From contig JANJGN010000047.1 of the NCBI GenBank assembly GCA_026770705.1, positions 4,216,001-4,280,000 on the forward strand: a stretch of 64,000 nucleotides of DNA, given 5' to 3'. A model generated the notes under the pieces. The model did not search any database and was not told the DNA's origin. It saw only the letters and a program-made list of their open reading frames with translations. Within the stretch, counting starts at the first letter, position 1. Each line of letters begins with the position of its first letter. The DNA comes from Isurus oxyrinchus (lineage: Eukaryota). A program made the position numbers and the translations under genes. Positions 1-54,559 of the stretch are shown here, piece after piece.

Positions 1-331
1 GTGCTCTGATACTCTGAATGGATCTCAGTCTCCGCCAATCAGTGAGTTCGCTATTATATTCACATCCATCTCCTGATCTCCGGGGACTGGAATAAATTCT
101 GAACGTATCGACAAACTGTCCCAGAAGGGGCATCTCTCCAACTTATACCGGCTCGTTTATGGGTTTAATACAATTATAGCCTTGCGTTTGAAAGGTTTGA
201 TATTTAAATCGAGTTTCAATGGGAGATTGGGCCAAATTCTTCTGCTCTGACCTGCAGAAAGTGGAGACCGGTTAGCTGGGTCTCGCGGTTTTAATAGGTT
301 GTAATTCTATGCTTATTATTGTATTTTACAG

Positions 332-646
332 AGGCTGTGAAACTGAGACTGGCGAATGGGGGCAGTCGATGCGCAGGAAGAGTGGAGATTCACTACAGAG
401 GGCAGTGGGGGACTGTGTATGATGACAGCTGGGACCTGCAGGACGCCGCTGTTGTGTGTCGGGAGCTGGGCTGCGGGACCGCGGTCTCTGCACCGGGCGG
501 GGCTCACTTTGGGGAAGGCTCCGGGCCCGTTGTGACATATAATGTTGAGTGCAGCGGGAACGAGGCCGCCCTGCGAGACTGTAAATCAGCTTCCTGGGAT
601 CAGAATTCCTGGCTGCACAGCAATGATGCCAACGCGATCTGCTCAG
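332..646 (+). CDS. SRCR exon 1 in window (6 Cys; C2 and C7 replaced)
   Basis: ttttacag|AG...TCAG|gtac; [49 protein letters not shown]...NAICS; 315 bp. Confidence 0.95.
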
Positions 647-6600: not shown

Positions 6601-9600
6601 TAGAAAATCGGAATAAATGCAGGCCGTCTCAAATATATTCCTGTCCCCGGCAATAACAACTTCATCCCTTGAGTGACCTTGTTCTGGATTACTGGACACG
6701 TGACTCTTTGCCAAATCTTTGAAATCCATTTAAGATTTTTAACATCGTTTAATCAGCCCTAATCCTTCCAGAGTAAATAGCTTCAAGACATTTTTGTTCG
6801 ATTCGGAATCACAATACAATGTTTAAGTAAATTAAGCATCCTTCTATATATACATTGCATCCCCTCCAAGACGAATAGTTTCTTCCGGAGTGCCCTGTCC
6901 AAATCTGACAGCTGTTATACAGGTTGGTTCTGGCCAATACTGGGTATGACTGAAACGTCACGTCCTCTCTTTGGTATTTCAAAGCTGTTGAGACAAAGTC
7001 CAAAATTCCGTTAGCATTTTCCTGGATGAACCCTCTACTTTGAGCAAACAGACGCGTTCGTTTAAGGGGTTATCGCAGTCTAATGAGTTTCAAACAGTAA
7101 GATGTATAAACAGTGCAGTACAACACGAATTTATAAATTTTCATTCCTTCATTTTTCTTTGTTTCGCCATGTCTATATTCAAATGTTCATTTACAAAATA
7201 TTTTCGTCCTTGTTTTTATTAAAAACAGGGAAGCATGGACCCCGATTGGTTGGTGGTGAGAACAGGTGCTCCGGCCGGGTGGAAGTGCTGCACGGAGAGC
7301 AGTGGGGGACCCTGTGTGATATTCACTTTGGTTTAGAAGACGCCAGTGTGGTGTGTGAGCACCTTCAGTGCGGGGCTGTAAAGGAAATCCCGAGGGTTTC
7401 TCCCTTTGGGCAGGGAGCAGGCCCTGTGTGGAAGGAAAATTACAGGTGCCACAGGAATGAATCGCGGGTGACAGAGTGTCGGGTTACATCCGGGGAACAT
7501 TTTAACTGCTCACATGGAAATGACGCCAGTGTCATCTGTTCAGGTGAGACCTCTCAGTCAATGTAATCATGGATTAAAATAATCTCCCTGCAACACTGAA
7601 AGGGGCCTTTCAGCATGTTCTGTCCATGGAGGCTCTCTGCGAAAGTATCCCACCCACTCACACAACCCTGCAATTTACAATAACTGTGCATTGTTTTTCA
7701 CTCATTTATCTAACGATATATATTTTAAAATCTACGATTCATAATCATCCACCACATCTTCAGGCAGTGCATTTCAGATCCTCGCCGCCACATTCTTAGA
7801 CGATGCTTTTCATATCTTCAAGCACCATATTCTCCAACAATGAATTGCAGATCCTCATCACCATCATTTTCAGAGAGTGCATTTCATATCCTCATCCTTT
7901 GCTTTCTCAGGCAGTGCATTGCAGACCCTCATCATCCACATTCTCCAACAGTACAATGCAGATCATCAAATACCACAATCTTAGACAGTGGATTGTAGAT
8001 CGTCATCCAGCACATTCTCAGACAGTGCATTCCAGATCCTCGTCACTCACATTTTCAGAAAATGCAGTGAAGATCCACATACGCCACATTTTCAGACAAT
8101 GCATTGCAGGTCGACATCCACCACAATCTCAGACAGCATATTTCAGATCTTTATCCACCACCTTCTCGGAAGGTGCATTCCATGTCCTCATTCACCAAAT
8201 TATCTGAAAGAGCATTGCAGATCGTCATCCAGCACATTCTCATACATGTGCATTCCAGACCCTCATCACCCACATTCTCAGACAGTGCATTGCAAATCTT
8301 TATTCCCCGACATTCTCAGGCAGTGGATTGCAGATCCAAATCCACCACATTCTCAAGCAGTGCATTGCAGATCCACATCCTCCACAATCTCAGACCGGGT
8401 GTTTCAGATCCTCACCACCCCCCCCCACCCCCCCCCCCCCCCCACGATCTCAGAATGTGCATGTCAGATAGCTTGAAGCAGATCCTCACCTACCCCCATT
8501 CTCAGCCAGTGCATTGTAGACAATCATCCGTCACATTCTCAGACAGTGTATTGCGGATTGCCATCCAGCATATTCTGGTACATTGCATCTCAGGTCCTCA
8601 TCACCCACATTCTCTGTCAACGCATTACAGATCCTCATCCATCACAATCTAAGACATTGCATTGCAGATCTTAAGCTAGCATTTTCTCAGACAGTGCATT
8701 GCATTTCATCATTCACTACAATTTCAGTCAGTGCATTGCATATCCTCGTCCACCACATTCTCAGGCAGTGCATTGCAGAACGTAATTAATCGCAACATGC
8801 AAAACTAGCATCCTTATGTCACCATTTCCAATTTGTCCATCACCATGAATCTGTACTGATCATTCTTGATCCTTCCGCCAATGGGAACAATTTTTCTGTG
8901 CCGTAATGTCCAGAACCCGAAGGTTGTTTTAGCATTCCCTCTCCAAGTAGAATATTCGTAGCTCACTCAAACAATGTAGAAAAAATACGTTTGTCATCAC
9001 CGAAATGATCTTATGAAGCATTCCTGCATCATTTCTAATGCCTTCATACCCTCCCTAACGTTTGTAGCCCAGAAATGGAAGCATTATTCCAGATGAGGCC
9101 GAAATGAATCATAACATCTTCCCTTCAGTGTACTCTGTGCCTTAGTTATACACCAAAGAACTCCAAACTTTAGCAGACTTTTCGCAACCTGCGCTGTCAA
9201 GTACAATGTTTCTTACAAATGCACCCGAGGTTCGTCAGCTTCTGAAACTCATTCAGAAATGATCCTGTTCTTTATTGTTCCTTCTCCTAGTCCTTCGTTT
9301 GGCAGCCTTACCTCTCTTAAAAACACTCACTTCTAAAGCACAAGGCCTGTTTCAAGAATGACTCAAATTATTTAGCAGAGCAGTCAAGTCTGTGAATGAA
9401 GTGCAGTGCTGTGGGAATGCTGTTCTCTATAATTTTGCTTGTTCCTGGTAAGAGGTTTAATCGATGCCATATCTGCATCAGTGGAGGTTAATAAAAATAT
9501 TTACCATGGGTCTACTTTGAGGGAAACTAGGGAGTCTATCCAAAGTTATCCCTTGATCAACATCAAACAATGTAGCTCATCTGGTCATTATCACACGATT

Positions 9601-12600
9601 TTTGTGCGATTTTACTGCGCCCATTATGGCTGCGGCGTTCCTTAAATTGCAACAGTGCTGACATTACACAATGCAAATAAATGACTGTAACTTGCGCTGA
9701 GGCATCCGGTAGTTTTGAAAAAAATACTAATCTACTTTAAATACGTATTTTTTTTACTTCCAACAAAAATGGGCCAACCAATGCTTCCCTCAACCGAATT
9801 TCGTCTATAACTTTCCGGCCCGTTCTAACAGCTTGTCGGTGTCTGATTTAATTTTAATCTTTCAACATTTTACAACACTTAAAAAAATTCTGTATTCTTT
9901 GAAGAAAAAAAATGAAATTGTTCCCCTTACAACCAAGTCTCGGTAGATATCATGTATTAACGGAAAATCAGGGTTTCTAGCCAGGTGGAATGTCCTGTTC
10001 CTCTGGTCTGGAAAAGAAGAAACGTTGAACACGACGTCCTGTTCCCTTTCAAAGAGCAATTCCATCTCCAATCAGTCATTTTTTTTTTATTCCACAGGCG
10101 CCAAACTTTTCTGCCAAGCAGCTATCGTGACCCTTTGCCAAAGGTCATTTCAAAGTCCATCAAAGCCACATCCACTCCATTAGCCTCATTAACAGTCTCA
10201 CTAACCTCATTAAATTACTCTAGCAAGTCCGTGCAATGCGATTGTCTCTTACCAAAACTACATTTTTCAACTGGCTCTAACTTCTGTCCCAATGTATATT
10301 TTCCAAGGAAACAAAGCTTTCCCAAAGCCAATATTAAACTTACTGGTCCGAATTTACTGCATTTATCCTAACACCATTTCTTGAACAAGGTGTAATATTT
10401 GGAAATTTCATTTGTCGGCATTGAAGAAGGATGGGAACATTATGACCATTATCTGGCGATTTCGGCTCTGACTTTGGTCATGCTCCCCGAATAGACGTCA
10501 TCCAATCCATGTGTCCCGTCAAATTCAACATCAGTTGCCCAAGCCAATTCGTCCTCTTTATAAATATCTAAACACTCCATTTTATTTCATCTGCCTATTC
10601 TTTGTCCAGCATTGAGGAGCATTTTCTTCCTTGGCTAAAAAACATACTCAAAATGCTGACTCAGCAGCTGAGCCATAACATCAGCCTTTATATGCCGATT
10701 TCCTTTTTGGTGTCTGTTTTGTGCCTATATAAGACTGTAAGATCCCGTTTTATGTTAGTGGGAGTCTCTTATATGGTCTGGATATTGTACATTCATCTTG
10801 GATCTCGCTTGCATTATCCAAATTCAATATCCTATCCATATATATTTATTTCTGCTTCACCTTAATCCCCATCTCTTTAATCACCCAGGGAGCCTTTGAG
10901 CTTTTGCATAGTCCTGCACTTGTCTAAGTCAATTTTCCATTATTGCTCCTCAGTCATTTTCAGAGCCTGCACGTCACGAACATCATTTATTGCAATGTAC
11001 GTTCACACACCTGAAAAGTAAATATAATTGAGGCCATTATACAACCCCGGTTGTGCTTATCATGAATAACACCACATTATTTCCTCCGTTATTGCAATCT
11101 TTCTTTTCTACTTTTCTGTGCAGTTTGGTTTTTCTCTCTAACCATATCTGCCCGTTCCCAAATCCCTGACAAATTCATTCTGTACTGTCCAACCAATAAA
11201 CCAGACGGACATTGCCGCCGGATTTTTTTTCATGTGAAACACATGAAAACATCCATTGGTCCTTTCTTCACAGAACTGAGTCTATGAGTGCATGAGAACA
11301 GGTCACAAAGTCACATGAGCTTCATTAGGACTCTCGTGCACCGTTTATCTTGCGACATGTTCATTAGTTCTATCGCTCGTACGTTGTGCTGGGATATTTC
11401 AATATTATCAGGATATTACTCCGTTGATGGCAATTTACTAGATTGTTTGCAACATCCTTAAAAATGATCTGCAGGACTACACCCCTCTTCCTACCTCTGA
11501 AATTGTTCCACTAACGGAGCACGAATGCTGACTGCTCACCCTCCCGCATCAGCGTGCTCAGCAGGGTCCCAGTGATCTGCCTCACCTTGGCACTAGGGTC
11601 AGAACATTTACGTGAATAATCATTGCCCCGGTTATATTGAGTCAGATGTGCATGATTTGTTTGAATGTTACCCCTTGCTCTCATCTTGTAGATGAAAGTT
11701 GGTCACTGAGATTGACGAATGGGGGAAGCCGCTGTGATGGTCGGGTGGAAATTTACCACAACGGTCGCTGGGGCAGAGTACAGGACAGCCTCTGGGACCT
11801 CAATGATGCTACCGTGGTCTGCAAGCAACTAGGATGTGGTGTCGCACTTGCCGCTTATACCTCTGCAATGTATGGAGAGAGTGAAGGGCCTGTGTGGGTG
11901 AATGATGTCCAGTGTGGAGGAAACGAACTGTATCTCCGCAACTGCAGCTCATTTGCAATGAATTCGTCTCTCAATGAAAGTGTCGGCGTCGGGGTTCTGT
12001 GTTCAGGTGAATAAATAGTTCAATTTTACCGGAACATAAATTGAAATATCTAATAAGGAGGGAGGTGTGAATATACGTCACGAGTTCTTTTAACCTAACT
12101 GCTTAGCATTGGAGGGCTAACGTGGGGAGAGTGGGCAAGCACAGAACTGATCAACAAGCAGGACATGCATTTTTGCTGTGCATTTATTAACGACGGAATT
12201 CAAAATTTTCTCTCAAACAGGAAATTCTGACAGCACTTCTGTTAGTGCGGGGCGGGGGGAGTTGTGAGGGGCGGGGCGGTGTGGTGTTGGGAGGGGCCTT
12301 ACAGCTTGGTGCGAAATTGTGTGTTAATTTAACAACGTTTTCATAGAATTGCCGTTCTCATACTCATCAGAGCGACAGGCCGCTCATGGGATTTCTGCAT
12401 TATTCAATCCATGAAAAAACGATGCACTTACAGGTCTTTCAGCAGCAGAAGACTGAGCTTCTATGAAATGTCATTCTTAAAAGTCACTTGGTTTCTTTTT
12501 TCCACTGAAGCTGCCAGATCCCCTGAGGAATTGCAGCATTTTTTTTCAATATAATCAAAATAAAAAAGCGATATAATCAGAAATCGACTGAAATAAGTTT

Positions 12601-15600
12601 TCGAGATACGTGCAGGGGAGAGAAAAAGCTGTGTACAATTGATGTTCATAAGTAGTTTAGGTGGAACGATGAATACAAAAAAGTTCAGTTGAGGTTGAAA
12701 CAGGGCACACAGCACTGAGCACACAATACGTGAACTGCAAGCCAAAATATCGATGGAATCAGGTGTAGGAATATTTGAAATCTTTGTGCACTCCACATTA
12801 TAAATTTCAAGTAATTAGAAAAACATGGTCTCAACTATAGAAACAGTTACCTGTCATAGTCAAGTGATTTGTTCTATTACTTTTGCTGGATAATGTCCAA
12901 TAGTTTCAATTTGTGTTATGACATAAATGCGTAATCGAATCCTCTTAATAAAGATTGTCTTCTTTGGATCAGAACACAAACAGTTAAGGCTGTCAGACGG
13001 TGGAAGCCCATGTGCAGGCCGAGTGGAGATTTACTATAACGGGACCTGGGGCTCAGTTTGTGATGATTCCTGGGATCTGACAGACGCTGACGTCGTTTGC
13101 AAACAGCTGCATTGCGGAAAGGCTTTGGACGTGACACTTCCTGACTCTTGCGGAGCAGGCTCAGGTCCAGTTTGGTTGGAAGGCTTGGAGTGTTCAGGGG
13201 AGGAATCGTATCTCTGGCAATGTCCTTCTGAATATTGGGGTGCCCACGACTGTTCTCATAAAGAAGATGTGAAGATCATGTGCTCAGGTAAGGGTGACGT
13301 AAATGCAATTATTTCCTTCATACGAGAAGATTCAGACAGATGGAATTTTACTGAATGGCCCAGAAACTGTACATCAACTGGTCATTCTGCTCAATGCGTC
13401 TGACTGCTGCTTATTCTGCTCATAATCCTACATCATTTCATGTGGTCTGAGCTGTATTGCACTCTGTATTTTCCCCTCGTGCCTTTATCAAACGTCACAT
13501 TCAAGGCATCACCACAATTCGCCCCCACTAAATGTACATGTTCCATGTTCCACATTCTCCTTCTATCTGGGTAATAGAAAGCGAAACAGAAAATCTCCTA
13601 AATCCCAATTTGTTTGGCTCTTGTGTTTCTTTGTCCGAAAAAATCACGACTTTATTCTAATCAGCATTGAAATAATTTCAGCATTGACAAGCCTATCCTG
13701 CTGTCTCCGACCGTCTTCCTGCAGTTAATGGAACCTGTCTTGGTATTACCTGCAAACCGTAGTGCATTTTGAACATTTACTTCAATTCCAAATACCAAAT
13801 GTAATATGTTAATCTGAAACAGACGTGAGCCCCAGCAATAATCCATGTGTACAGCACGCCCCAATTTCTGCTATTATATATGAAATCCTGCGTTGTCGCT
13901 TGTTTGCTCTTCTATTAATACTGTGCCGGCAATTTCATTTCCCTGTTCTCAGCCTTAATGCAGCTGTTTGAAAACTTTTTGAAAGTTATTGTTTTCAAAA
14001 TCCATGTGGATTACATGGACATTATTATCTCCACATAATCTTTCTGAAACTTCCTCAAGTAATTCAATGAATTGGAAGATCTATAGTTCGCTCTTTTGAA
14101 ATCTGTGTTGATTATCATTGATAATATAATTGGATTGTACATGTATCACTGTTACATTTCTGGAATAATTATCTCTATTCAGTGAACACCTCTGGCACAA
14201 CTTGGGTGGAGGGGGCACTGTTGACATGATTCCATTTATCACTGGAAACATCTGGAGATTTCTTCTTTCATTGATAGAACACAAAGCGTTGCGGCTGGTG
14301 AATGGAAAGCATCGCTGTGAGGGGCGGGCGGAAGTGTTCTACAATGGGATCTGGGGAACAGTGTGTTCGGAAGCACTGGATCGCCATGATGCTGAGGTGA
14401 TCTGTAAACAGTTACAGTGTGGCCCCCTGGTTTCTATAGACTATACCACTCAGTCATTCGGAGAAGGATCCGGACCTATTTGGCTCGATGAAATAGAATG
14501 TATTTCACACGAGTCGACCATCTGGCAGTGTCAGACAGACCAGTGGGGACAACACAACTGTAATCACAAAGAGGATGCAGGCGTTTCATGTTCAGGTAAC
14601 AAAACAAACCTTCCAATGTGCGAGTGTTATTTCATTCATTGATGTCCAAATGAGTCAGCACGTTTCTTTCCTCAACAGGAAGAAAGATAACGAAGGGCCA
14701 GCCCAAAAGTGAAAAGGATTGTGGTCGAGAATCAGGTGATTGCTCCACTTTAATAGATCAATTATCTGAGTTGTCTACCTGTATTTTTGTGCAGAAATAA
14801 TAGTGATTGATTATCTTTGACAGATTCAGATGTAGGTTTGCGCCTGATTGGAGGTAACACCAACTGCTCCGGGCGAGTGGAGATAATGTGCAAAAACAAC
14901 TGGAGCACAGTGTGTGATGACTCTTGGGATATGGCCGATGCCAATGTTGTCTGCAGACAGCTGCATTGTGGCTCTGCTCTATTGGCCACAGCAGGGGCCA
15001 CTTTTGGACAGGGTGGAGGTGACATGTGGTTTGATGAGGTGAGGTGTACCGGAAGCGAATCCTTTCTCTCTGATTGTCCTTCCTTAGCGTCTGCTCAAAC
15101 TGACTGTGATCACAAGGAGGACGCCAGTGTGATTTGTTCCGGTAAGGGTATTGCAGAATGGTGCGAGTAGGGGCCCGGAGATTGGCGGTTGGTGATTGTT
15201 TGCTGAATACGTCTCATGAATTTGTAAATGATGAAAAAGAGATGACTTTCTAAGTTAAAGTTCTATATTTTTTGTTTAATAACCCATAGGTCCAGAGTTG
15301 TCATCGGCTGCTTTTCCATCCACACCCGCAGGTTGGTCTTATGATTAATGAGTATTCCTGTCAAGGCTAATGTTCAGAATGATCTGATATAATTGGCATT
15401 TGCTTGTTTTTATAAAGAAATTCTGAGGTTAATCTTAGTGTTTCAGAATGTTGGACCGTTTAACAATACAAAGCATCCTGTGTCCTAGTTGAATCTTTCT
15501 TTAACATTTCATTAAGGACATGAAGACAATATCACTTCCATCCCTCTTGTGATTGGTATAACAATCGGTATCCTGTTGATCTGTGAGTTCATCCTACTAA

Positions 15601-24101: not shown

Positions 24102-24999
24102 TATATCCATCTGGAAGATGCTTAACTTTCCGACATAAACATGTTTTGAGAAAAAAAAACAAACGTTACCTTGTGTGGAGACATCTAGATTCGTTTCTTA
24201 AATCTATAAATTATCTTAAAAAATATAAATACTGCCTAATGAGAATTGTAGGACAAAGGATTTTTTTCGAGCATTTTCATGTATATAATTAAACTGTAGC
24301 ACACTCCGCTGTATCGACAATACAACCCATCAAGAGAATTGAAGAACCAATGACTATCATTAAAAGTTTATTTTCAGCTCCATTTTGTAATAGTTTTTTC
24401 TTTCCAAATGCCTTACAAATGAAGGGTTGGAACAGGGAAATAAATGAAATATCTGTTTTACATCCATTTGGTGTGCTTTCTCTCTAGACTGCCACATACG
24501 TCGGACACAGAGAGTTGCATTCTCATAGCAGCTCAAAACAGCACGATGTTGCTTGACAGCACAACATATAACTCTCGGGTTATCGAGTCTGGAGGGAGGA
24601 AAACATTCAGAATTCAATATGTCTCCAATACTTTACTTTTATAACATAACTGCTCAGTTGTCCATCAGTGGAGCTCAGATCTAACTGACTCAGGAGAAAC
24701 AATTCACCGTGCACTATCCCCCAGCAGCTCTTATTTTAGTTCCATGAGGTTGGCGATTGTATCAGGCATGACCACATGCAGAGGGCCACCATTATAACAA
24801 ATACAGCACAAAATAGAGACAAAATGTTCAAATAATGACATAACATAGACTGTTAGAGAAACAGTGCTCATGTTTCCTGTCTGTGAAAGGGTCATGGGCC
24901 GGATTGATAAAATAAACCCTCAGCTCTAGTACTCTGTGTTCTGTCCCTGTGAACTTGCTGTGCTATGTACGCTCAGGGAAAAAAAAATCTTCCTTCTCT

Positions 25000-25700
25000 G
25001 AAAGGCTGGTGGAAACATAATCGCGCTTAATGTTTGTTGCCAATCTTCCAGCTGGTAGAACCGAATCACCAGCTGTTTGGAATTTTGTCCTGTCTTCACC
25101 TGTAGCGAGACACCAACAGTTGACATCAAGCCATCCTTCCCCAGACACTCTCGGGACACCATGGATGCTGGAGTTATGCACACAGGAAACTAATTCCCCC
25201 TCACGCCATAGTCTACTCGAGCATATTCTACATCCTTCTGAATTCCCATAACACTCAAGACACTCAAGAACATCCAGTATTAAAGCCGCCCGCTTGACTG
25301 CTGCACCACCCGCCATCTACGGCCTTAAATAAATCATTCCTTCTCCCTTTGACAATGGTAGCAGTGTGTACCATTTCAAAGATATACTGCAAATACTGAA
25401 TACGATTATTTTGGCAAAACTTCCACACACACGAGCTCTCCAACATAGAAGGACAAGGGCAGCAGGCGCATGGAAGCGATGCTACCTGCAATTTCCCATT
25501 CAAATCTCACACACCGTATGGACTTGGAAGTATATTGTCGTTCTTTTACTGCCGATGCACAAAAATCCTGGAAATCCCACCGAACCGCACAGAGAATGTA
25601 TCTACACCACAGGAATCTGGCTCCCACCATAAATATCAGGGCAATTGGCAATGGGTAGGGTATAGTGGCATAGCTAGTGATGCAACATCACGCAAATGCC
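25000..25700 (+). mobile_element. LINE 3' fragment, same family as 15700/21915, sense orientation
   Basis: agaaggacaagggcagcaggcgcatggaa...cttggaagtatattgtcgttctttt...agggcaattggcaatggg. Confidence 0.6.
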
Positions 25701-25714
25701 TTTATAAAAATGGT

Positions 25715-25875
25715 GCAGCTGTCTGACACATCATTCCCACTTCTTGCTATCACTAATATTTTGAAAGTCATTTACAATTCTCTTCAGACTATACGCAACA
25801 TGTTTAACCATTTCCAGTATCCTGGCCTTCACTAATTCTGTTTCACAATGGACATCCAGTTCCCCTACAACAACT
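25715..25875 (+). mobile_element. Penelope-like RT fragment
   Basis: tttaaccatttccagtatcctggc...ctgtttcacaatggacatccagttcccctac encodes FNHFQYPG...FTMDIQ, resembling RT motif A. Confidence 0.6.
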
Positions 25876-26039
25876 TGGACATGCCACTACATCTGTATCA
25901 CCGTTCATTCCATGTTGTTGTTTTAGGGTCCTGGAATTCCCTTCCTTACAACTCTATAATTAAAGGGCAATTAGGAATCAGCAACAAAATCTGAATTTAC
26001 CACCACTCCCGCATACCACAAAAGAATAAAAACGTGATG

Positions 26040-26805
26040 CATCCTTCCCTCAGCAGAACAGCCAATTCCCATAGAACTCTATCTTCACCAGGTGTCCCAA
26101 TCCCTCTAAGCCTCATGCATCACGACAACATTCAGTCCCCCTGCAAATCCAATCATCAGCAGGGCATCCAGTTCTTCTACACACACATACCTCAGCAATA
26201 CAATTGGTCCCTCTGAACATATATTGTTCAACAAGAAATCCAGTTTCACTATGCCAACATCCCGCACAACGACATTCAGTCCTTCTTTAACTCCATCACT
26301 CGCCACGTCTTGTAGTCCCTCTGCATAACATTCCCTCAATGGATATCTTGTTCCTCTTCAACTAAATGCCGCAGCAGGAAATCAAATTCCTCCACATCTC
26401 CATCCCTCAGCCTGGCACACAATCTTTCCAACTTTCCATGCCTCACGAGGAAATTCAATCCCTCTCCACCTTCGTCTACCAACAGGGTATTCATAACCTC
26501 TACCCCTTCATCTTCACCAGGAAAACCAATCTCTCTTCACCTCCATCCCGCAATATGACCGGCAGTCACTCCTCACCTCCATCCATCACAGGGCATGCAG
26601 TAATTTCGCATATCGGACACTCAACAGCATGCATTTTCCCTCTACACATTCATCCCTCAGCCTGGCACACAGTAAGACTGTATTCCCATTACTCAGCCGG
26701 ACATCCAGCTTGTCCAGGCCACCTCACTCACCCCTGGCATCCGGTACCTCTACACGTCTCCCTCCGTGGGCATCCAGTCCTTCTACACTTTCATCCCTCC
26801 CCAGT
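26040..26805. repeat. Degenerate ~36-bp minisatellite, about 20 copies (consensus gacatccagtccctctacacctccatccctcagcag)
   Basis: Recurrent catccagtc/catccctcagc at ~36-bp spacing; ORFs 26034 and 26366 show a 12-aa periodicity (QGIQFFYTHIPQ, QEIKFLHISIPQ, EEIQSLSTFVYQ). Confidence 0.8.
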
Positions 26806-26809
26806 GATG

Positions 26810-28320
26810 TTAAGTGACAATGACATGGTTAATTTTTCATGAGGACAGAGAATGATGTATATGGGTATGAAACAAGGGTCCTGAAACGTAATGGAGAAGG
26901 TTGCGATGGTTTGGGGTGCGGCCTGTCTTTGCTGGATTTGGAAATGTTGTTTGGAGGGATGACGGTGGATGGGCAGTGACGGATATTTGGGGGGCGCTTT
27001 GTGGCTTCAACACTTGTTTGTTCATGTCTGGCGCAAGGGGAAGATAGCAATGGTGTCTGATCCATGGCCTACAGGGGAAATTGGGGATAGTGTTGGATCC
27101 AAGGAAGCGGCAGACAAGTTGGAGGGGAAAAAGGGAAAGACATGAGGATTGGGAGCACTTTAGAGTTCATCAGGGGAAGACCAGGGGATTGATTAAGTGG
27201 CGAGGGTGGAGAGTGCGAGTAGACTTGCGGGAAAATATCAACTGACTGTTAACGCTTCTATAGAATGTGAGGAGGGAAGGGTTGGTGGATACATGTGCGG
27301 GTCTCTTAGAGTCAGAAACAGGTGATTTATGATTGAGAACGAAGGGGTGGCTGACCAACTAGATGGATACTTTTGGTCTGACTTCACAAAGGAGGACGTG
27401 GGTGACGTGCCAGAAATGTTGGGGAACAGGGTCTAGAGTGTAAGGGCGGAGCTGTAAGGAATCAGTATGGGCACAGAAATGGTGTTGGAGGGATTGATGG
27501 GATTGAGGGTCAGTGGAATCCTGGGGCCTGATTGTCTACGTCCCAGTGTACTTGGGGAGGTCGCCCTTTAAGTGGTGGATGCACTGGTGGTCATATTCTG
27601 AGATTCTATAGAGTCGGGTAAAGTTCCTGCGGGTTGGAGTTTAACTAACGGAACGTCAAAATTTGGAAGGGCAGTTAGAGAGAACGCAGGGAGTTGTTGA
27701 CCAGTCGGGCTGACATCGGTGGTGTGGAGAGTTCAGGAGTTAAATTTGGGATATTTGGTAGGTGAGCCCTTGGGAAGCAGTGGCAGAATCGGACAGAGTC
27801 AGAGACGGACAGAAGACTGGTTGGCAGGCAAGAATTAGGGAGCGGTCATGAGCAGGTCTTTTACCGAATGGCAGGCAGTGAATAGAGCAGTGCTGCGGGG
27901 GTCGTTGCTGCCATCCAGGTTATTCAGGGTGTGTGTCAATGGTTTTGATGAGGGAGCTGGGTGTGGTGTCTCCGAATTTGCAGATGACATGGTTCTGGTT
28001 GGGAGGGTGAGCTGTGTGGAGGATGCGGAGATGCTTTGGTGTGATTTGGACAGGGTGAGTGGGTGGGCTGCTGCATGCCAGAAGCAGTGTGCTGGGGACG
28101 GATGTGAGTTTGTCCACTCTGGTCGCAGGGATGGGAGGGCAGATCGTTATCTGAATGGCTTTGAATTGAGTGAGGGGAGTGGGCAAAGAGGTATGGGGAC
28201 CGGCCACTGAGGGTAAGCATGCTAGTGCAGTGGTCAATGGGGGAGGCGGATGGTGTGTTGGCCTTCGTAGCTGGAAGATTCGAGTAAAGGAGGGGGGGAT
28301 GTATTGCTGCAAATATACAG
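26810..28320 (+). mobile_element. CR1-type LINE ORF2 fragment, strongly G-enriched (A-to-G hypermutated), internally deleted
   Basis: ORF 27848 contains the RT motif SEFADD...DLDRVSGWA; collinear with the copy at 34200-35420. Confidence 0.88.
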
Positions 28321-28774
28321 ATTATCAAATTTCATATCCGAGTGTCACAAAGACTGCTCATCATAACAAGGAGACACAGGAAAGGCACATTCTGGGGAGT
28401 TAATTTATACTAGTGAAGTAGAAGGGATTAACACACTTGCCCAGGCTCTGCAAGTCCATTTCCCAAACTCCCAAACTCTGCCCATACGTATTGTTGAACC
28501 CCAGAATGCAGATTAGAAGTGGACACAGCCTGTTGATTGTGTTTACCTTGACGGGCAGCCTCTGGAGGTACCCAGCCTGCTGTCGTGGTCCTAAAATGTG
28601 GAAGAGGTACCCTCCTCGGCATGTGGAGTTGGGGCTGCTGAGGTCACTGGAAGGGGGACTCGGAGAGGACAGGTACGCGTGGAGCCAATGGATTGTATAG
28701 ACATGGTGATGTGCATTGTGGGATTATCCTGCATATTGGTGCCTGAAAGTCCTTGTCTGAGTCATTGGCAGCGT

Positions 28775-29262
28775 GTGTGAGATAATGTGTATGTATGTGC
28801 CTGTGTGTGCATGTGTGTGTCTGTTCATTTGTGTCTTCATGAATCTGTATGTGTAAGAGAGAGGGAGAGACGTGTGTGTTTATTCCTGTATATTTCTGTG
28901 TGTGAAAACGGATGTTTATCTTAAAATTTCTGCGAATGTGGAAATTCACGTGTGTTTATGTTCCTGATATATGTGTATTGCTGTTATTGTGTGCACGTGT
29001 GCTTTTCTGTGTGTTTGTGTGTCAGGGAGTACTTGTGAGATTTTGTGCGTGTGCTTGAGTATCTCTGCTTGTGAGAGTAATTATGTGAGCAGGTGTGAAT
29101 CATTTTTTGTTTGCCTATGTGTATTCATATGTGTGTCTGCGCATTTGCACGCTTGTGTGATTTTGTGTGTGTGTGTGCGTGTTGTGTCTGTGTGTGTATT
29201 TCTGTGTGTTTGTGTGAGTGAGTGTTTCTTTGCACATGTGTGTGTGTGTGAGAGAGAGAGAT
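28775..29262. repeat. Degenerate (TG)n low-complexity tract ending in (GA)n
   Basis: Directly visible dinucleotide runs. Confidence 0.9.
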
Positions 29263-29679
29263 AGGGTGAGAGGTTATGTGAAACATAGGAACATAGAAAT
29301 ATAGAAATTGGAGCAGGAGTAGGCCATTGGGCCCTTCGACACTGCTCCATCATTCATTATGATCATTGCTGATCATCCAGCTCAATATCCTGCTCCAGCT
29401 TTTTTCCAACATCCTTTGATCCATTTCACCCCAAAAGCTATATCAACTCTTCCCTTAAAACATGCAATGTTTTGGCCTGTACTAATTCATTTGGCAACGA
29501 ACTCCAAAGGCTCAAGAACGATAGAGGTGTTGAAAACACAGCTTGACAAATACATGAATAGGACGGCAATAGAGGGATACAGACCCTGGAAGTGCAAAAT
29601 GTTTTAGTTGGTGGTCAATAGGATCGACGCAGGCTTGGAGCCAGAAGGGCCTGTTCGTGTGCTGTACTTTTCTTTGTAC

Positions 29680-30900
29680 TATGACATCCATTCCGTCTAC
29701 CTCTCCAGACCACGCCGGAACAACCAATCTTTCTGCAAGTACATCGCTCACCAATGCACTAAGTCGCTCCACAACTCTATCACTGAGTTGGAAATCCATG
29801 CCTTCTAACACCTCAGCTTCTGTTAAGGACAGCCTGGCATGGCACCCACTACCACCATCCCTCAGGTTTACGTTCAAATCCAGTGCAGCACAATACTTGG
29901 AAAAGCCATTTTGACAGAGAACACTTCTGTCTCTTCTCAGAATGGGTAGTCTTGATCTCTCCCTCATCCCTATTAATTATTATTCACCAAGATTACAAGT
30001 GGATTTTTAGCCTCCTACGTTACTGGGCATTCTGTGGATTGCTTCATCGCTGACCCCTTCCACGCTTTCCAAACGACCCATCTTTTTCATTCATATACGT
30101 CAGTTCAAATAATTGCCTTGTAACAGCAACAATCTTCATCTGTCGAAACTTAACTCTTATTGGAAAAATCATCTTTGCATCTACAGCATTTCTCCAATAA
30201 AAGCACAATAATTACATTAAATCCTTAAGAGTCCTAGCTATCCCTTTGTTTATGTGAAGGGAACATTATTTCTGATATTTTAACTGCAATGTTATTCTGC
30301 CTTTAGTTTACTGGTGTTGACTTGGAATAGACCACCTATCTATTATATAAAATAATTCAATTGCTGTCCTCCCTATGCATGACTTATCTGTGAGGCCTCC
30401 CGCTTCCTCCCTCGACTTCCTATTTCCATTTGTGGGGATAGACTGTTTACAATACGTATAACAATGCTGCTGTCATGCACACCAATCTTTATCATTATTC
30501 CTGCCATTCTGCTTCCTGTAATTTCTCAGCTGATTTTTCATATTCCTCCGCCTTCATCACATCTGTATTAATTGGGCCACGTTCCACAACACTACTTTAG
30601 AAATTATTTCCTCCATGCTCTGCCCATAAGTCGGCTTCATTGGGGCACACAGGGATCTCGATCATGACGGTCCCATATCCTGCACTTCCGCCCTCGACCT
30701 GCTCCTCTGCATCAGCATCATGCTAGACTCCCATCTATACCTACTTTCCACAACCCTAAAGATCAATTATTTTACTGTGTTTGCAACTGGCACCTACTAC
30801 GTCACCAAATGCACTTTCTTCATCACCTGGTCTCTTTCGCTAATCATACGTAGACCGTTTTTCCTCTGGAAATCAGCTTTATTTTCGTATGAAACGGCAG
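29680..30900 (+). mobile_element. Decayed Penelope-like element N-terminal/central fragment
   Basis: C/T-rich sequence resembling 37700-38350; tentative. Confidence 0.4.
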
Positions 30901-31194
30901 AGCCCCCCCTTAGAGGGATAATAAATTTCACCCACAAGCGTTACATACAGAACACTCTTACCCTGTTGTCTTTCATTTTTCAGGGCCACAACAAATCCAT
31001 CCTTGTGAAGTCATGTTGGTGTACTGCTTCTGCTTTCCTATACTGGATTCATTGAACATGCGGATATTGCCACAACTCACTAATGAGTCATTTTGTATCA
31101 AAGTTAGACGTTGTACTGATCTGTCACTCAGCAACGCGGCAAATTATGTATGGAATTTAAAAGCAATTTTGTGCAGTCAGTGGAGGCCTGTAAT

Positions 31195-32042: not shown

Positions 32043-33435
32043 TCACAGCATCTCAGCGCAGAACAGGCCATTCGGCCCATCGAGTCTGCAACGACACGAG
32101 ATTACAACCAGACCTAACAACCTATTTCCATTTCCCAGAACGTGGCCCATAGCCTTAAATGTTATGACGTGCCAAATGCTCATCCTTGTATTTTTTAAAG
32201 TATGTGAGGCAACATGCCACCACCACCCTTCCAGACAGTGCATTACAGACCGTTACCACCCTCTGGTAAAAAAAAAAGTTTTCCTCACATCCCCCCTAAA
32301 CCTCCTATCCCTCACCTTAAAGTATGCCCCCTTGAGAGGTCAAATATGGGGATCATCTATTCCCTATCCAACCTGCCCATGTCCCTCATAATCCTGTAAA
32401 CCTCGATCATGTCGTCCCTCAGTCTTCTCAGCTCCAACAAAAACAACCCAAATCTATTCAAACTCTCTACAGAGCTTAACTGTTTCATCCCAGGCAACAT
32501 CCTGGTGAATCCCCTTTGCACCATCTCCAGTGTAAACACATCCTTCCTTTCATGTAGCGAGTAGGGTTGCACACATTACTCCAGCTGTGGTCTCAATAAT
32601 GGTCTATAAAGCTCCAACATGTCCTCCCTCCTTTTCTAATCTGTGCCTTGTTTTATAAAGGCAAGTCTCCAATAAGCCTTTCTCACAGTCCCACCAACGT
32701 GCCCCTCTGCCTCCAGGGAACTATGGACACACACGCCAAGTTTCCTTTGTTCCTCAGAACATCCAAGTGACATTCTGTTCATTGAATACTTCCTTGACAA
32801 AGTCATCTTTCCAATATATATCACCTCACACTTTTCATGGTTAAATTCCATCTGTTTCTTATTTGCCCACTTGACCTTCCCATCTATATCTTCCTGATCC
32901 ACAAGACACTGAAACTCACTGCTAACTACCCAGCGAATCTTTGTGTCATACGCAAAATTACTAATCATAACCCCCGCATAGTCAAATATGTCATTTATAT
33001 GATTGACAAAAATGGTGGACCGAGCACAGATCCCTCTGGTACGCCACTGGATGGACCGGGTTTCCAGCCACTAAAGCATCCTTCTGTCATCACGCTCTAC
33101 CTCCTTCACTTTAAGCAATTTTGAATTCACCTTGTCAAATAACCCTGAATCCCATGTGCAGTTGCATTCTTTATAAGTCTCCAATGTGGGACCTTGTCAC
33201 AAGCTTTGCTGAAATCCATTTAAGCTACGTCAACTGCACCATCATCTACACATCTGGTCACCTCCTCAAAAAAACTGAATCAAACTTGTTAGGCATGACC
33301 TCACTCTGACAAAGCCATGCTGACTATCACTGAGCAAAACTTGCCTTTCCAAGTGGAGAGAGAGACTCTCCTTCAGAACTTTTTCAAATTTTCCCTATAA
33401 CTGACCTGAGACTCACTGGACTGTTCTTCCCTGGC
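32043..33435 (-). mobile_element. CR1-type LINE, 3' end plus RT
   Basis: Minus ORFs ISNFAYDTKI...QMEFNHEKCEVI and LEMVQRGFTRMLPG; 3' end ggccattcggcccatcgagtctgc. Confidence 0.9.
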
Positions 33436-33439
33436 TTAT

Positions 33440-35935
33440 ATCAGTAATCATGAGGATGTTCAAGGTACAATAAACTGGGAAATACTAATCAGTACTAATG
33501 TTGTGTAGGTATATATATTGGGGTGCATGTAAGATTGTTTCCTGAAGTTGCATCTTGAAGAACCAACTCGACAACTGGCAATTTTAGATCTAGTATTTTG
33601 CAATCAATGGACAGAATTAATTTTTTTGTTGCAAACTACCCATTAGGAAAGAGAGACCATAAATTGCTAAAAAAAAAACCCCAAGTATTCATTCACAACA
33701 TGTTTTCGTTCAATGGGATATTGATCTAAAAGTCAAATGTGAGGGCAGGATCTTCAAGTTGACTTTCTTCTGGCAAAGCTTCGTTAAAAGGCATGATTGT
33801 AGACAGTCAATAGCTAAAACGTAAGGAAGGCGTGCATAATTTACTACAAAAATACATTAATTTAATGCAATAAGGCCAAGCAAGGAACGTGTCTCAGCCA
33901 TGGCTAATTTATTAAATATAGGATTACATTGGATCAAAGGAAGAAGTGTACAAATTTGCAAAAAATAGTAAGCCTGAGAATTGGAAGCATTTTAAATTCA
34001 GCTACGATAAATCAAAAAGAGAGAGAATCTTCACAGAAACACAGAATACCACAGTGCAGAAGAGGCCATTCGGCCCATCGAATCCGCACTGGCACGTGAG
34101 AAACACCTGAATTAATTAAGGGGAAAAGAATATAAGGCTAAACTAGCGTCAAATGTTAAAATATGGACTGTTAAATATCCTATAGGCAAGCAGAAAGGAA
34201 AATACTTGTGAATAAACGTCAAATATGTGCCCATTACCAGGGGATTATTGATAACTTATAACGCAGAATAAGGAAATGGCCGGGAAGCTATATAAATATC
34301 TTATGCATGTCTTTATGGTGGAAAATGCTAACACCTCTCAAAAACACTGGAGGAGCAGGGGACTACTCTAAGCGAGGAAATTCATGATATTAATATTCAT
34401 CTTGAAAATAACACTGGAGAAATTACAGGCCCTTAAATCTAATGGTTCCCTTTGAGGTGAAGGTCTGCATCCAGATAAATTGAAAAATGTAGCTTAGAGA
34501 TAGGAGATGCAATGGCGATCATCGTTCAAATTTGATAGATTCTGGAATGTATTCTGCTGATCGGAATGTGGTGAATGTAACCAAGTTATTTATGAAAATT
34601 AGGAGAGAGCAAATAATGAACAAGAGGTGTTAGCCTGACATCAGCAGTAAGGAAAATTCTAGTATACCTAACGGAGAATGTGAACATTATACACCGAGGA
34701 AATAATTGGAGGGTTACCCCGAGTCAACATGGATTTGAAACAGGGAAATCGCGATTAATACATTTGTTGGAATTTTCTGAGAATGTGCTCAAGCAGAACA
34801 GTTCACGATGAAACTCTGCAAGTGGTATGTTTAAAATTTCAGGAGGCTTTAGTAAGTTCCTACACGCGAAGCTGGTAAGCAACATTAGATGCATGAAATT
34901 GCGGGAGTGGGGCGATGGTGGGGGTTGGAGGGGGTGTGATGTTAAAGCCTGCATTGTGAACTGTTTAAGAGTCAGAAAACAGAGACCAGGAATCATTAAA
35001 TATTTTCAGGTCGACAGGCTGTGACTAATTTGGAATTGCAAGGTTAATTCCCTGGGATTCACTTATTTACAATCTATATCAATGATTCGGATCTGGGGAT
35101 TAAAGGTAATATTTCCAAAATTACAGATGACAAAAAAAACAAGGTAGGAGTCACAACTTTGAGACGGATGCAAGGAGGTTTGCAGAAGCTAAGCGAGTGG
35201 GTGCAGGTTCGGCACATGGAATACCATGTGCAGAGATAAGAGGTTATCCACCTTCGTCAAAAAAAAGAGAAATACCGAGTGTTTCTAAAATGTCCAGAGA
35301 GCGGGAAATGTGGCATTGGGTATACTTGTTCATGAGTCACTGAAAGCTAACATGGAGGCACAGCCAGCAGTTAAGAAGCTAAATAGCATATTGGCTTTTG
35401 AATGAAAAAAATTGAGTGCAAGGTAAAATATTTCTTTATGCAATTTGATCGTTATATTTGCAGAATGGGGATGGCAACGAAGTTTCACCAAATTAATTAA
35501 TTAAATGGAGGGATTGTCATATGAGGAATTATTAAATAAAAATACATTTAATATCCAGAGTTTAGATCGCATTGAAACAAGAAAAAAATCTAATAATGTT
35601 AGCCAAGGCTGATGCTGGAAGGACTTTTCACCTGGATCACGAGTCGAGAAACAAGGGAGGCGTTACCTCAATTAAGAACAGGCCATTTAGGACAGGGATG
35701 AGGACGCAGTTCTGAAAGGAGAGTATGTACAATCTTTAGAAATCTCTGGTCCAGGGGGCTGTGGAGGCTCAGTCATTGCTTATTCAAAGGCCGATGTCAA
35801 TAGTTTTCTAAAGTTAATCAAGGGTTACGAGAAAATGCAGGAAAATCATGTTAAATGTGAATATCACCAACTATTTCATTGGTTGGCGGGAGGTCCCGAA
35901 GGTCTGAATGGCTTAATCCTTCTCCTATTTCTACC
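33440..35935 (+). mobile_element. Decayed CR1-type LINE ORF2 through 3' end (small opposite-strand LINE end inserted at ~34035-34110)
   Basis: ttagatctagtattttgcaat (endonuclease end), caacatggattt...gggaaatc, aatatttccaaaattacagatgac (SKFADD-like), ctgaatggcttaatccttctcctattt 3' end. Confidence 0.85.
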
Positions 35936-43950: not shown

Positions 43951-44946
43951 TTCGTTACTAGAGAATATACAAACTAAATCAACAAAAACACCTTAAACTA
44001 CAAGAGGTTAAAATTGCAAATACCTTACCCACTACTTCCCATTGATTTATTTCCATGATAGTCTCTACTGATGCAGCAGGGCAAAACTCTCGCTCTGAAA
44101 GTTTAAGAAGTTGGAAAAAATGCAAAGAACAGCTCGCACCCTACGCACCAACTGCCCACTGTGCACCAAATTGCGAATAGCCAAGCTGGATTTGCCCAAC
44201 TATGGATGTGATCTCTCCTTGTTCGTGTGCAAGCAGGGCTTTCACTGTATTTATAATTGAAAATGCTTTGAAATGTTAATTAATTAATTTTTGTCTTATT
44301 GTATGGGGAACGTGTTTCTGGACTAACAGAACGAATGAGGCCACCGGGAGGTGTGAACAATGTTGTATTTGGGGCTACATGTCTTCGGGTTTCTTGATAA
44401 GCGTTTTTCTAGTGCTTCAGAAAGAGGCTGATCACAGTTTCCATTTGTAAAACAGGCAGCTGAAATTCCTCCATCTCCAATTGCATTCTTCTGTTTTAGA
44501 TTTGATTCCAATGTTTTTCTTTTGTTTGTTTTCTCACTGTAGATTTTTTCTTTTCATTTCGGCACTGCTTCAGGTTTACGATTGAATGCTCTGCTCACTC
44601 TTTCATATTTTCTTGCAAAATGTATTTTGGATGATTTCACTGTAACGGGGCCACGCTGAAAAGTGAAGCACTTTGATGGGGCGTTGTATAATGTTCACTG
44701 TTTTGCAGGGATGTTCATGTTCACTGCTTGTGTCCGGCGACGGTTCCTTCCAGTTAAGTGTTAACTTATTGGGAGCGTAGATGAAATTGACTTCCGGCTA
44801 ATTGAATCATGGAACAATCCAGCACTGTACTTTATAATTTCAAGATAATTATTTCATTCATATTTTTGTGAAGTCTGCTTGGAGGATCCATGATTTTTTC
44901 TTCTTCTGTGCATTGTACATGATACAAACAGTTGGAGACATGCATT

Positions 44947-45246
44947 ATAAAAACAAAAAAACTGTGGATGCTGGAAATCCAAAACAAAAACAGAATTACT
45001 TAGAAAAACTCAGCAGGTCTGGCAGCATCGGCGGAGAAGAAAGGAGTTGACATTTCGAGTCCTCATGACCCTTCGACAGAACTTGAGTTCGAGTCCAAGA
45101 AAGATTTGTTTATTTCAACTCTTTCTTGGACTCGAACTCAAGTTCTTTCGAAGGGTCATGAGGACTCGAAACGTCAACTCTTTTCTTCTCTGCCGATGCT
45201 GCCAGACCTGCTGAGTTTTTCCAGGTAATTCTGTTTTTGTTTTGGA
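44947..45246. mobile_element. Palindromic Penelope 3'-end insertion with 15-bp target-site duplication
   Basis: Arms 44978-45108 and 45116-45246 are reverse complements; ttggagacatgcatt occurs at 44932-44946 and 45242-45256. Confidence 0.92.
45141..45179 (+). ncRNA. Minimal hammerhead-like motif (mirror copy on the - strand at ~45045-45083)
   Basis: agtt-CTTTCGA-a-gggtc-atgag-gactc-GAAA-cg-TC-aact. Confidence 0.5.
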
Positions 45247-46520
45247 GACATGCATTTTTGCTCAAATTGTTAAACTGCTCACCGCGGCTGAACAACTGCA
45301 CAGGTTGTGAATACTAAAGTTTGAAATCTGGCTGGCTAATAGAATGGAGAAGCAGGATGTAATGCCCAAAATGAACGTTGAAAAAAGAGAGGAGAGCATT
45401 GGAGAGAGAGAGAGAGAGCAAAATAATGTAAAGCTATCATCAGTGTGAATCATGCATAAGGTGGGACGGCTGATTTGCTCAGAACAATTATTGAGACAAA
45501 ACTGATTTTAAGTTGCACATACGATGGTGCCACATATAGTGCAGAGTAATGGTGGATCTGCTCGGTGTGAGTTAAAACTGTCAAGCCTTCAAGAGAGTTT
45601 TTTACTGAAGCTTCATTTTCCTTCCTTACTGCAGACTAGGCATAATAGCGTCATGTTTTCATTTCCATGATGTCGATTGACAGCTTCACTATCGTGATTT
45701 AGATACCATCTGACAATTCATTAGAAAAAACATCATGTCAAGAACATGTTTAAATTTATTGATTGAAAATGTGCTGAGGGAATTGATCACACTTGATTTG
45801 TTCCCAACTTACTGGTTCCATAACACAAATGGGCACAGGTAATGATGTTTTTTTTTGTGCAAACTGAACTGTTAAAGACATTTTTGCACTATTATTCTGC
45901 TGAAATATATCCCTTTTGACTAATCCTACTCTGATTTTAATCAGTTTATCCAACTGCCAAATCCATCAGCTCCAGTCTTCCTTCCTGCTCGGATATGACA
46001 TTTCCCCTGTCTTCCTAAGACTATAATTCATTGTCTAGGCCTCCAAATTACTCTCCCAATGGTATCCAGAATGTTGAACTCAATGCGATGTGAGTTCATT
46101 TATTTTATTTTAAAGACTGTTTCGGCAAAACACTGATTGATTCGCATGTACCAGTAGAACGAAGCAGCTGTAATAAACGTTGTCACAAGGAATCCCTCCC
46201 GTTCGAATGCAGCCCAAATGACAATTTCAGACGTTGGATTCCGCCTGTGTAAACTGACTTCCGCCTCTCGGCTGGCACTGCACTGCAGAGTCACTCAGTC
46301 CTTTCTGTGGAATCGATAAAATTGATACAAATTGTTTCAAGATTTCCTGAATCATTGCTGGTTTTAAAAATAAAACCCAATCAAAGGTTCAGAAAAAAAA
46401 CAGCGTGAATCGGATGATGGTCCAGTAAAGTACTAACATCAACCACAGATTGTGCCACCTCCTGCTGTGGCCCCACATCTTAACAATAACATCTATGCTT
46501 TATCTTTCCCCCTCTCCAAG

Positions 46521-47310
46521 TTAACATGGCGGCGATTGCAATCCTTTCCCGAGGAAAATGCGTTCTGCCCAAATGTATAAGTGGGCACCAGCGGGGAAAG
46601 GCTGTGACCGATCTCCCTGTCGTTCTACCTGAAGCGATATTGCAATGGATAGGGGCGCTTTATTTCCTAGATTACTTCCTGAAAATTACTCCTGTGTGCT
46701 ACCTCATAATCACCTTGTCCTTTGAAGCAACAGCGCTTTCCATATGTTTCACAGTCGCTTTCAACTTTGACCGATTCATGGCCATTTGTTGCAAAAAACT
46801 GAGAACAAAGTATTGTACCGAGAAAACTGAAGCTGTCGATTTCGGAACAGTGAGCGTGGTGGGCTGCTTTGTTATGATCTCGTGGTACTTTATCCGGGAA
46901 CCAATAAATAAACTTGATAATATATTGTTACTTCACCCGTATCATCCGTATATTTGATGCTCTTCTGATTTTGCTTCTCAATCTCCCAATGATCAGACAT
47001 CTTGTGGTTTCCAGTAGTATCCGATGAAGTCTCCAGGGCTGTAATAAGAAAGAGGATCGCTAGGAACTAGAGCTGTTGAGCCGAAGGATGTCCACCATTT
47101 TAATGTTCAGAATTTCTGACAATTCAATTCTGTTAATGGCATTCCACCTAGTATATAGCAATTATCTGAATTTCCACAAACTGTTAATATAACAGAAATC
47201 AGAGCAGCAATGCTGCAGCGTCACAATAATTGCACCACCACATGTATTCACATTCTTACCCGGATTAAATTCAGAGAGGAGTTGGTGGACGATGTAAAAC
47301 GCCCATTCAA
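46521..47310 (+). pseudogene. GPR139-like class A GPCR pseudogene (main exon)
   Basis: cctctccaag acceptor, then NMAAIAILSRGKC...FTVAFNFDRFMAICCKKLRTKYCTEKT; the frame breaks after ~46930; TM7/helix-8 remnant MLQ...CTTTCIHILTRIKFREEL at ~47210-47285. Confidence 0.85.
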
Positions 47311-54130: not shown

Positions 54131-54559
54131 TGTGGGGGGTGGAGAGAGAGAGAGAGAGAGAGAAGTGGAGGGTAGTTGGTGTGGTTGTAGGGACAAACAA
54201 GCAGTGATAGAAGCAGATCATCAAAAGATGTCACATCTTTTGATGATCTGCTTCTATCACTGCTTGTTTGTCCCTACAACCACACCAACCCCCTCCACTT
54301 CTCTCTCTCTCTCTCTCTACCCCCACCGCCGCCCCCCCCCCCCCCCCCCACCCCCCTCACACACACACACACACACACATTAAACCAGCTTATATTTCAG
54401 CTCTTTCTTGGACTCGAACTCAAGTTCTGTCGAAGGGTCATGAGGACTCGAAACATCAACTCTTTTCTCCTCCGCCGATGCTGCCAGACCTGCTGAGTTT
54501 TTCCAGGTAATTCTGTTTTTGTTTTGGATTTCCAGCATCCGCAGTTTTTTTTTTGTTTT
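53953..54559. mobile_element. ~600-bp palindromic Penelope 3'-end insertion with 17-bp target-site duplication
   Basis: Symmetry centre at 54232 (aaaagatgt-c-acatctttt); tatcacctgatatataa occurs at 53938-53954 and 54560-54576. Confidence 0.95.
54423..54461 (+). ncRNA. Minimal hammerhead-like motif (mirror copy on the - strand at ~54016-54054)
   Basis: agtt-CTGTCGA-a-gggtc-atgag-gactc-GAAA-ca-TC-aact. Confidence 0.5.

Follow-up and report, generated by a model that had tools for sequence, protein, structure and literature searches.

A strand-specific A-to-G hypermutated LINE fragment in the Isurus oxyrinchus genome, a likely DNA record of ADAR-type RNA editing

The question raised by this locus is whether a LINE fragment unusually rich in G and poor in A is the DNA copy of an RNA that was edited by ADAR, and how such an RNA could have entered the germ line. 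The window analysed here is a 64,000-nucleotide stretch of the 4.98-Gb Isurus oxyrinchus genome (contig JANJGN010000047.1, positions 4,216,001-4,280,000). A sequence-only reading had described positions 26810-28320 of the window as a CR1 LINE copy with pervasive sense-strand A-to-G change, the possible fossil of a LINE RNA that was hyper-edited in defence against retroelements and copied back into DNA. The right end of this segment is confirmed and its left end is corrected to 26805 (plus strand). Its composition is as described, with 24.1% A and 37.7% G over 26810-28320 compared with 34.0% and 28.9% in the same columns of its family. The family is referred to by the working label CR1-A, and a second one by CR1-B; that they are of CR1 type is presumed from the earlier reading and from a resemblance to CR1 elements. 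A CR1-A family copy (L248) contains an RVT_1 domain, and the RT open reading frame and microsatellite 3' tail expected of CR1 are both present.

The copy with which the segment was originally compared, at 34200-35420, is unskewed but belongs to a different, older CR1-type lineage (58% identity) and is therefore a weak comparator; it extends over 34111-35930 on the plus strand and is about 60% like the CR1-A reference. Another older CR1-type copy at 32346-34002 consists of two oppositely oriented pieces that abut back to back at 33440, resembling a 5' inversion. The strings quoted from the two copies are found at 27929 and 35071, and the frame of the segment reads FRVCVNGFDEGAGCGVSEFADD. Of the 36 amino-acid changes over 78 RT codons, 19 require A>G alone, and the quoted E>G becomes K>G once the motif is compared with the right family, CR1-A.

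The CR1-A reference was built in-script from 21 dispersed copies (22 were fetched and the near-duplicate L027 was dropped) and contains a 737-codon open frame. On this reference of ~2608 positions the segment covers ~310-2029; it is 5'-truncated, lacks the final ~580 bases and ends at 2029 in all paralogs examined. An internal deletion of 189 bases (reference 1313-1501, between 27801 and 27802 of the window, plus strand) is likewise present in all paralogs examined and has no GT..AG ends. The edited frame is interrupted by 8 stops in 503 aligned codons.

In the main alignment, in which the majority of 17 paralogs (the partial L005 and L014 being excluded) was compared with the 21-copy reference over 1525 columns, A>G is found at 170 of 517 positions and T>C at 19 of 345 (Fisher p=3e-24). 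C>T is found at 24 of 223, and G>A at 27 of 440, which gives no sign in this segment of the sense-strand G>A of APOBEC DNA editing. The window's own copy gives almost the same picture (A>G 167/515, T>C 17/341), and the excess of A>G is estimated at 142 changes. The consensus alignment that had been proposed as a check thus finds A>G and T>C clearly unequal. Each of the 15 bins of 100 bases between 26800 and 28299 contains 7-20 A>G and 0-3 T>C changes. Such one-strand dominance of A>G is expected of ADAR hyper-editing, as is a dense, non-selective and confined tract: all 15 bins and all codon positions are affected, and the neighbouring sequences are unskewed. A>G is even across codon positions and similarly frequent at synonymous (39/123) and non-synonymous (131/357) sites, which indicates that selection was not at work. 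CA -> TG is more frequent where the A had changed (8/26 vs 4/71, p=0.002), as would be expected if newly made CpGs had later decayed.

The family itself does not share this behaviour. A>G amounts to 1-3% in the 21 reference copies, and because these were chosen by likeness, 40 more were chosen by position, from among the first 100 listed of 3640 matches to the motif, some of them being picked for a G in the motif; in all 40 A>G is low, with a mean of 2.0% and a maximum of 4.2%. Against the majority of these 40 copies the segment still shows A>G at 169 of 516 positions. Among 89 LINE fragments in 680,012 sampled bases, 87 are unskewed (A>G minus T>C rate 0.011 +/- 0.041, maximum 0.116), and the remaining two are the halves of the edited segment itself (0.26 and 0.30). 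The direction of change is fixed by outgroups as A to G: at 150 scorable changed sites, 69 distant CR1-type fragments have A at 102, G at 9, a mixture at 35 and C or T at 4.

The neighbour context is that of ADAR in its main feature. A>G affects 50 of 90 adenines preceded by T, 73 of 162 preceded by A, 26 of 92 preceded by C and 21 of 136 preceded by G (56, 45, 28 and 15%; p=2e-10), and the avoidance of a 5' G foreseen by the sequence-only reading is thus present within the order T > A > C > G. The net rates after scaling for the family background are 0.51, 0.43, 0.24 and 0.11 respectively; in that background 5' A is the lowest A>G class, unlike in the edited segment. For human ADAR1 and ADAR2, a 5' U or A is reported to be more favourable than a 5' C or G (PMC11276115; PMC8586724), and a weaker preference for a 3' G is also reported (PMC11276115). 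The latter is absent from the CR1-A segment (46/135 vs 124/345, p=0.75), which counts against a perfect ADAR match. No influence of positions -2, +1 and +2 on A>G was found in the segment, nor any clustering of A>G in AA runs (32/64 vs 38/89). The genome contains 28 matches to the A_deamin domain over several contigs, a domain match that does not separate ADAR from ADAT or ADAD.

The edited segment is the first part of a three-part insert of 2.88 kb. The insertion site (26804/29684) is defined by older paralogs in which both positions are joined directly: three of four older left-flank paralogs (L109, L110 and L112; 71-76% alike) pass from 26804 to about 29684, and in the fourth (L111) the match ends before the empty-site junction. 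The segment is followed by a composite-repeat piece at 28321-29290 (plus strand), made up of a unique-looking body and then a TG-rich tract, which is unskewed (A>G 3/84, T>C 17/262). Next comes the 3' end of a second CR1-A-family copy at 29291-29514 on the minus strand (reference 2383-2608; plus-strand A>G 2/58), which is native to the composite unit and with the preceding piece makes up the second part of the insert; an 8-base tail repeat is located at 29280-29307. The third part, at the right end of the insert, is formed by CR1-B at 29518-29683 (plus strand), a 5'-truncated LINE 3' end with a microsatellite tail that is 89% like its dispersed copies and shows A>G at 1 of 41 positions. The host flanks are balanced in comparison with L109 (window G/other A 52, A/G 40, C/T 85, T/C 80). 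The A>G skew therefore stops at both ends of the CR1-A piece. A degenerate C-rich repeat of 143 bases lies just left of the insert (26084-26716), and one paralog, L131 (G000:C47:2971000-2980999), carries a later 3-kb insertion at the left end of the insert (about 5451-8485 of L131) with ~14 bases repeated on both sides.

These borders bear on the suggestion that a burst of polymerase errors, for example G misincorporated opposite T while the second strand was being made under low dATP, produced the tract. Such a burst would yield sense-strand A>G from one event, and dNTP pools are reported to bias retroviral mutation (PMC3185545), yet it should have hit the adjoining pieces if these belonged to the same event, and their A>G counts are 3/84, 2/58 and 1/41. 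Slippage would moreover be expected to favour a neighbouring G, whereas 5' G is the most avoided context and 3' G is neutral. A polymerase burst is accordingly regarded as very unlikely.

The structure of the insert gives partial evidence of a LINE-made retrocopy (target-primed reverse transcription, TPRT): a LINE 3' tail on the sense strand and an empty site are both in place, but neither a clear target-site duplication at 26804/29684 nor splice signals at any join of the insert were found. Short or missing target-site duplications are common in CR1-type insertions. The RNA step is thus marked solely by the tail and the A>G signature. Splicing, considered for the internal deletion as well as for the joins, was rejected for want of GT..AG ends. 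An attempt to place the four pieces of the insert in order of age from their divergence gave no significant difference (159/1008 vs 15/122 non-A columns, p=0.35).

The insert is multiplied together with its surroundings. At least 20 near-identical loci, the window included, were detected, with at least 19 for each half of the segment at 93-100% likeness; the half-segment searches scored 40 of 2942 and 40 of 2061 candidates, and the locus counts are lower bounds. After these loci there is a gap down to the dispersed copies at 73-75%. The loci have both flanks in common, and exons of an SRCR-domain gene at 298-15170 (plus strand), duplicated together with the insert, are 96-100% like those of the window in 18 of 19 paralog upstream stretches. 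The common flanks and the SRCR gene identify the loci as segmental duplicates and not a subfamily, although some pairs, with a likeness of 99-100%, may represent haplotypes. G is present in all 17 paralogs at 135 of the 170 A>G sites and in at least 15 paralogs at 155. Differences among the paralogs are of an ordinary kind (A>G 18, G>A 43, T>C 10, C>T 30), and the changes that arose after duplication are unskewed (new A>G 14/310, new T>C 7/301, p=0.18). The A>G event is therefore older than the duplications, a single event later multiplied by segmental duplication.

Several features of the gene cluster may be recorded alongside. The multi-SRCR-exon gene forms a cluster of about 20 recent duplicates and contains a 37-base minisatellite of 28 copies (window 7745-8779). 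In L281, an SRCR paralog on C20, the exons are 91-95% alike and nearby non-coding sequence about 75%, so that the exons look conserved. Other paralogs have lost 24968-27311 or 27514-30974. Elsewhere in the window, a 155-codon frame at 46490-46957 on the minus strand looks by eye like a G-protein-coupled receptor fragment, and an inverted pair of 161 bases (44944-45104 and 54402-54562) is 93% alike and 9.3 kb apart.

Part of the stretch is contained in 20 public runs from seven studies under two species labels, among which no RNA runs are listed. Run X1 spans 26700-28369 in a single contig with 53 differing letters, and in each of four runs compared the window's G is read as A at only 8-12 places. 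The join at 29514 is bridged by contigs of X1 and X19 and that at 29684 by one X1 contig. The bases whose confirmation the sequence-only reading had called for are thus present in independent sequencing runs, as judged from contigs rather than raw reads, although the best-matching run may derive from the source sample. Next to no credence can be given to a subfamily rich in G, or to an artefact of sequencing or assembly. The 20 near-identical loci might suggest a subfamily, but they have flanks and the SRCR gene in common, and the next matches are 74% alike and carry A; a subfamily with these G's was rejected. The frame is broken, Pfam no longer detects the RT piece, and short-read contigs from four studies show the G state.

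A regional DNA bias is also extremely improbable. The candidates for an immune-type gene cluster such as this are GC-biased gene conversion, asymmetry coupled to transcription and mutation of the polymerase-eta type. In their favour, the region evolves ~3x faster than the large chromosomes (T>C 5.5% vs 1.9%), and TA and AA, the contexts favoured here, are targets of polymerase eta as well. T>C is nevertheless sixfold below A>G, the flanks are balanced and the changes since duplication are unskewed, while a preceding A or T does not increase A>T and A>C (21/273 vs 16/244, p=0.73), which speaks against a process like that of polymerase eta.

It is considered highly likely that ADAR edited an RNA carrying the CR1-A piece within a long duplex, and that this RNA was then reverse transcribed into the germ line. 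This core of the sequence-only reading withstood the comparison of A>G with T>C, the search for a subfamily and the inspection of the bases. About 140 sense-strand adenines would have become guanines in one event before the duplications. Inosine is read as G by reverse transcription (PMC5389660), so that an edited sense RNA would leave A>G on the sense strand; had the first-strand cDNA been edited, T>C would be expected instead. The editing may alternatively have occurred directly on DNA, ADAR having deaminated the genomic sense strand in an RNA:DNA hybrid with antisense CR1 RNA, with no reverse transcription of an edited RNA. Little probability attaches to this. Hypoxanthine in DNA gets repaired, and the change, at 33% throughout the 1.5 kb and without paralogs in intermediate steps, is better accounted for by a single edited RNA. 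Hybrid editing would likewise stay within the LINE sequence, and in vitro the DNA strand of hybrids is indeed a substrate of ADARs, with a similar trend by neighbour, but a 90-bp hybrid was edited at just three sites (PMC5389660).

A duplex requires a partner, for which the composite unit offers a candidate. This unit is multicopy, more than 15 kb long, TG-rich and present on many contigs, and harbours a long antisense LINE. The antisense CR1-A-family copy reaches reference 21-22 in all five composite units examined and so spans the whole edited region, while in the window's insert it stops at 2383 and leaves a candidate antisense partner of 224 bases only. Composite units L121-L130 (C203, C20, C105, C53 and C35) are 70-90% alike as members, and no host gene was recognised in them. 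A donor locus with a sense/antisense pair was not found, the nearest composite units being 72-74% alike, and mismatches and gaps of five candidate partners left no footprint on the editing rate. L255 (G000:C1:80415500-80419700) has two CR1-A motif matches ~200 bases apart on opposite strands, forming a natural inverted pair, and is unskewed (A>G 5/267). The idea that the edited piece is the composite unit's own LINE in inverted form was rejected, since at 30 of the 35 sites diagnostic for the composite units its base is that of the family.

The edited RNA perhaps came from a hairpin transcript. The duplex partner would be antisense CR1-A RNA, plausibly from the antisense copy of a composite unit, and one transcript could fold with a sense arm, the body as a loop and an antisense arm, of which the paired arm alone would be edited. 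As the sense arm ends at 2029, the antisense 2383-2608 would have had no partner and only the first part of the insert would have been paired. Entry into DNA was probably by way of another LINE's machinery: the CR1-B enzyme may have primed on its own tail and then switched template onto the edited RNA, or it may have copied a read-through transcript that already ended in a CR1-B tail. The edited piece would then be a passenger whose partner arm was skipped or later deleted, and the dead insert would have been carried along by duplication of the SRCR gene unit. This hairpin-and-passenger route would explain both the edited/unedited borders and the foreign tail, and is credited with about half of the likelihood given to editing and reverse transcription as such; identical borders would be expected had the pieces arrived separately.

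A somewhat unlikely version is that an active CR1-A mRNA was edited in a duplex with antisense RNA and inserted itself, its 3' end being lost later in a rearrangement that brought the other pieces. The 5' end resembles ordinary LINE truncation, the edited piece is a separate copy by its diagnostic sites, and all pieces of the insert are of like age. Against this, three pieces must have met in one empty site without intervening host DNA, and the 3' end expected of a copy retrotransposed in cis is missing at all 20 loci, the copy stopping at 2029 of ~2608. The original proposal of a LINE mRNA retrotransposing itself is thus unsupported, with the last ~580 bases absent and a foreign LINE tail at the end of the insert. 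Nor does the locus support defence against retroelements, because a passenger without a 3' end need not be an active element, and human ADAR1 is reported to have restricted L1 in a cell assay without detectable editing of L1 RNA (PMC5224506).

The capture in trans of an ADAR-hyper-edited hairpin transcript by a LINE RT is put forward tentatively in a wider form, in which the edited/unedited border would be a fossil map of RNA structure and such inserts would form a searchable class dating germline ADAR activity across species. The search for further copies with the same skew, suggested by the sequence-only reading, returned none, the 20 loci being one event spread by segmental duplication. Five edited-motif scans of the genome (7, 2, 0, 0 and 0 matches) yielded no second edited CR1-A copy; the nine matches comprise two ordinary CR1-A copies, two unskewed copies of other families and five that are not LINE at the match. 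The first motif is intact in 3640 places, and heavily edited copies would thus amount to less than about 0.2% of the copies that keep it. As the 20 known loci are matched by none of the five patterns, such scans can readily overlook edited copies of some age.

A-to-I editing is taken as transient, whereas the CR1-A tract is a fixed, datable and strand-specific record. It would mean that RNA rich in inosine can be reverse transcribed by a LINE in germ cells or in the early embryo, and that one such event adds some 140 heritable changes at once. It also provides an easy way to test whole genomes, mirroring the APOBEC screens, and would document the sequence preferences of an ancient ADAR. Its weight is limited by the rarity of the event in the genome and by the apparent lack of function of the insert, and editing as a LINE defence is not implied. 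A literature search of mainly open papers returned no report of germline non-LTR copies hyper-edited from A to G, and PMC13343379 mentions neither ADAR nor editing nor hypermutation.

The insert recalls several known systems. Template switching by LINEs yields bi- and tripartite chimeric retrocopies, which are likewise fused RNA copies with the LINE 3' end last (PMC2104539); they are proven by target-site duplications, of which the CR1-A insert has no clear example, and the abstract of that report describes none of them as hyper-edited. Hyper-editing of Alu pairs similarly involves a long duplex between two opposite copies of one repeat family, but is normally visible in RNA only, whereas the CR1-A edits stand in DNA; according to a 2016 review, it was not yet determined whether editing plays a part in the evolution or suppression of Alu elements (PMC4982230). 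The APOBEC 'DNA editing' fossils of genomic LTR retrotransposons are also deaminase signatures in retroelement copies and, like the CR1-A tract, are detected by strand- and direction-biased clusters; they are G>A changes made on the cDNA of LTR elements, as opposed to A>G on the RNA of a LINE, and the screen selected G-to-A and filtered out A-to-G (PMC4866542; PMC2873906). A>G hypermutation ascribed to ADAR is already known in proviral DNA (PMC8586724; PMC8025556). The proviruses concerned, RAV-1 and avian leukosis virus (cited in PMC8586724) and BLV in its 3' LTR (PMC8025556), likewise have clustered sense-strand A>G in DNA, fixed by reverse transcription, and 5'-G avoidance is the mark of ADAR there too. 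In comparison with the ~70-bp window of BLV (PMC8025556), the CR1-A tract extends over 1.5 kb with about 140 sites, and unlike the proviral cases it belongs to a non-LTR element and is old, germline-fixed, found under two species labels and duplicated 20 times.
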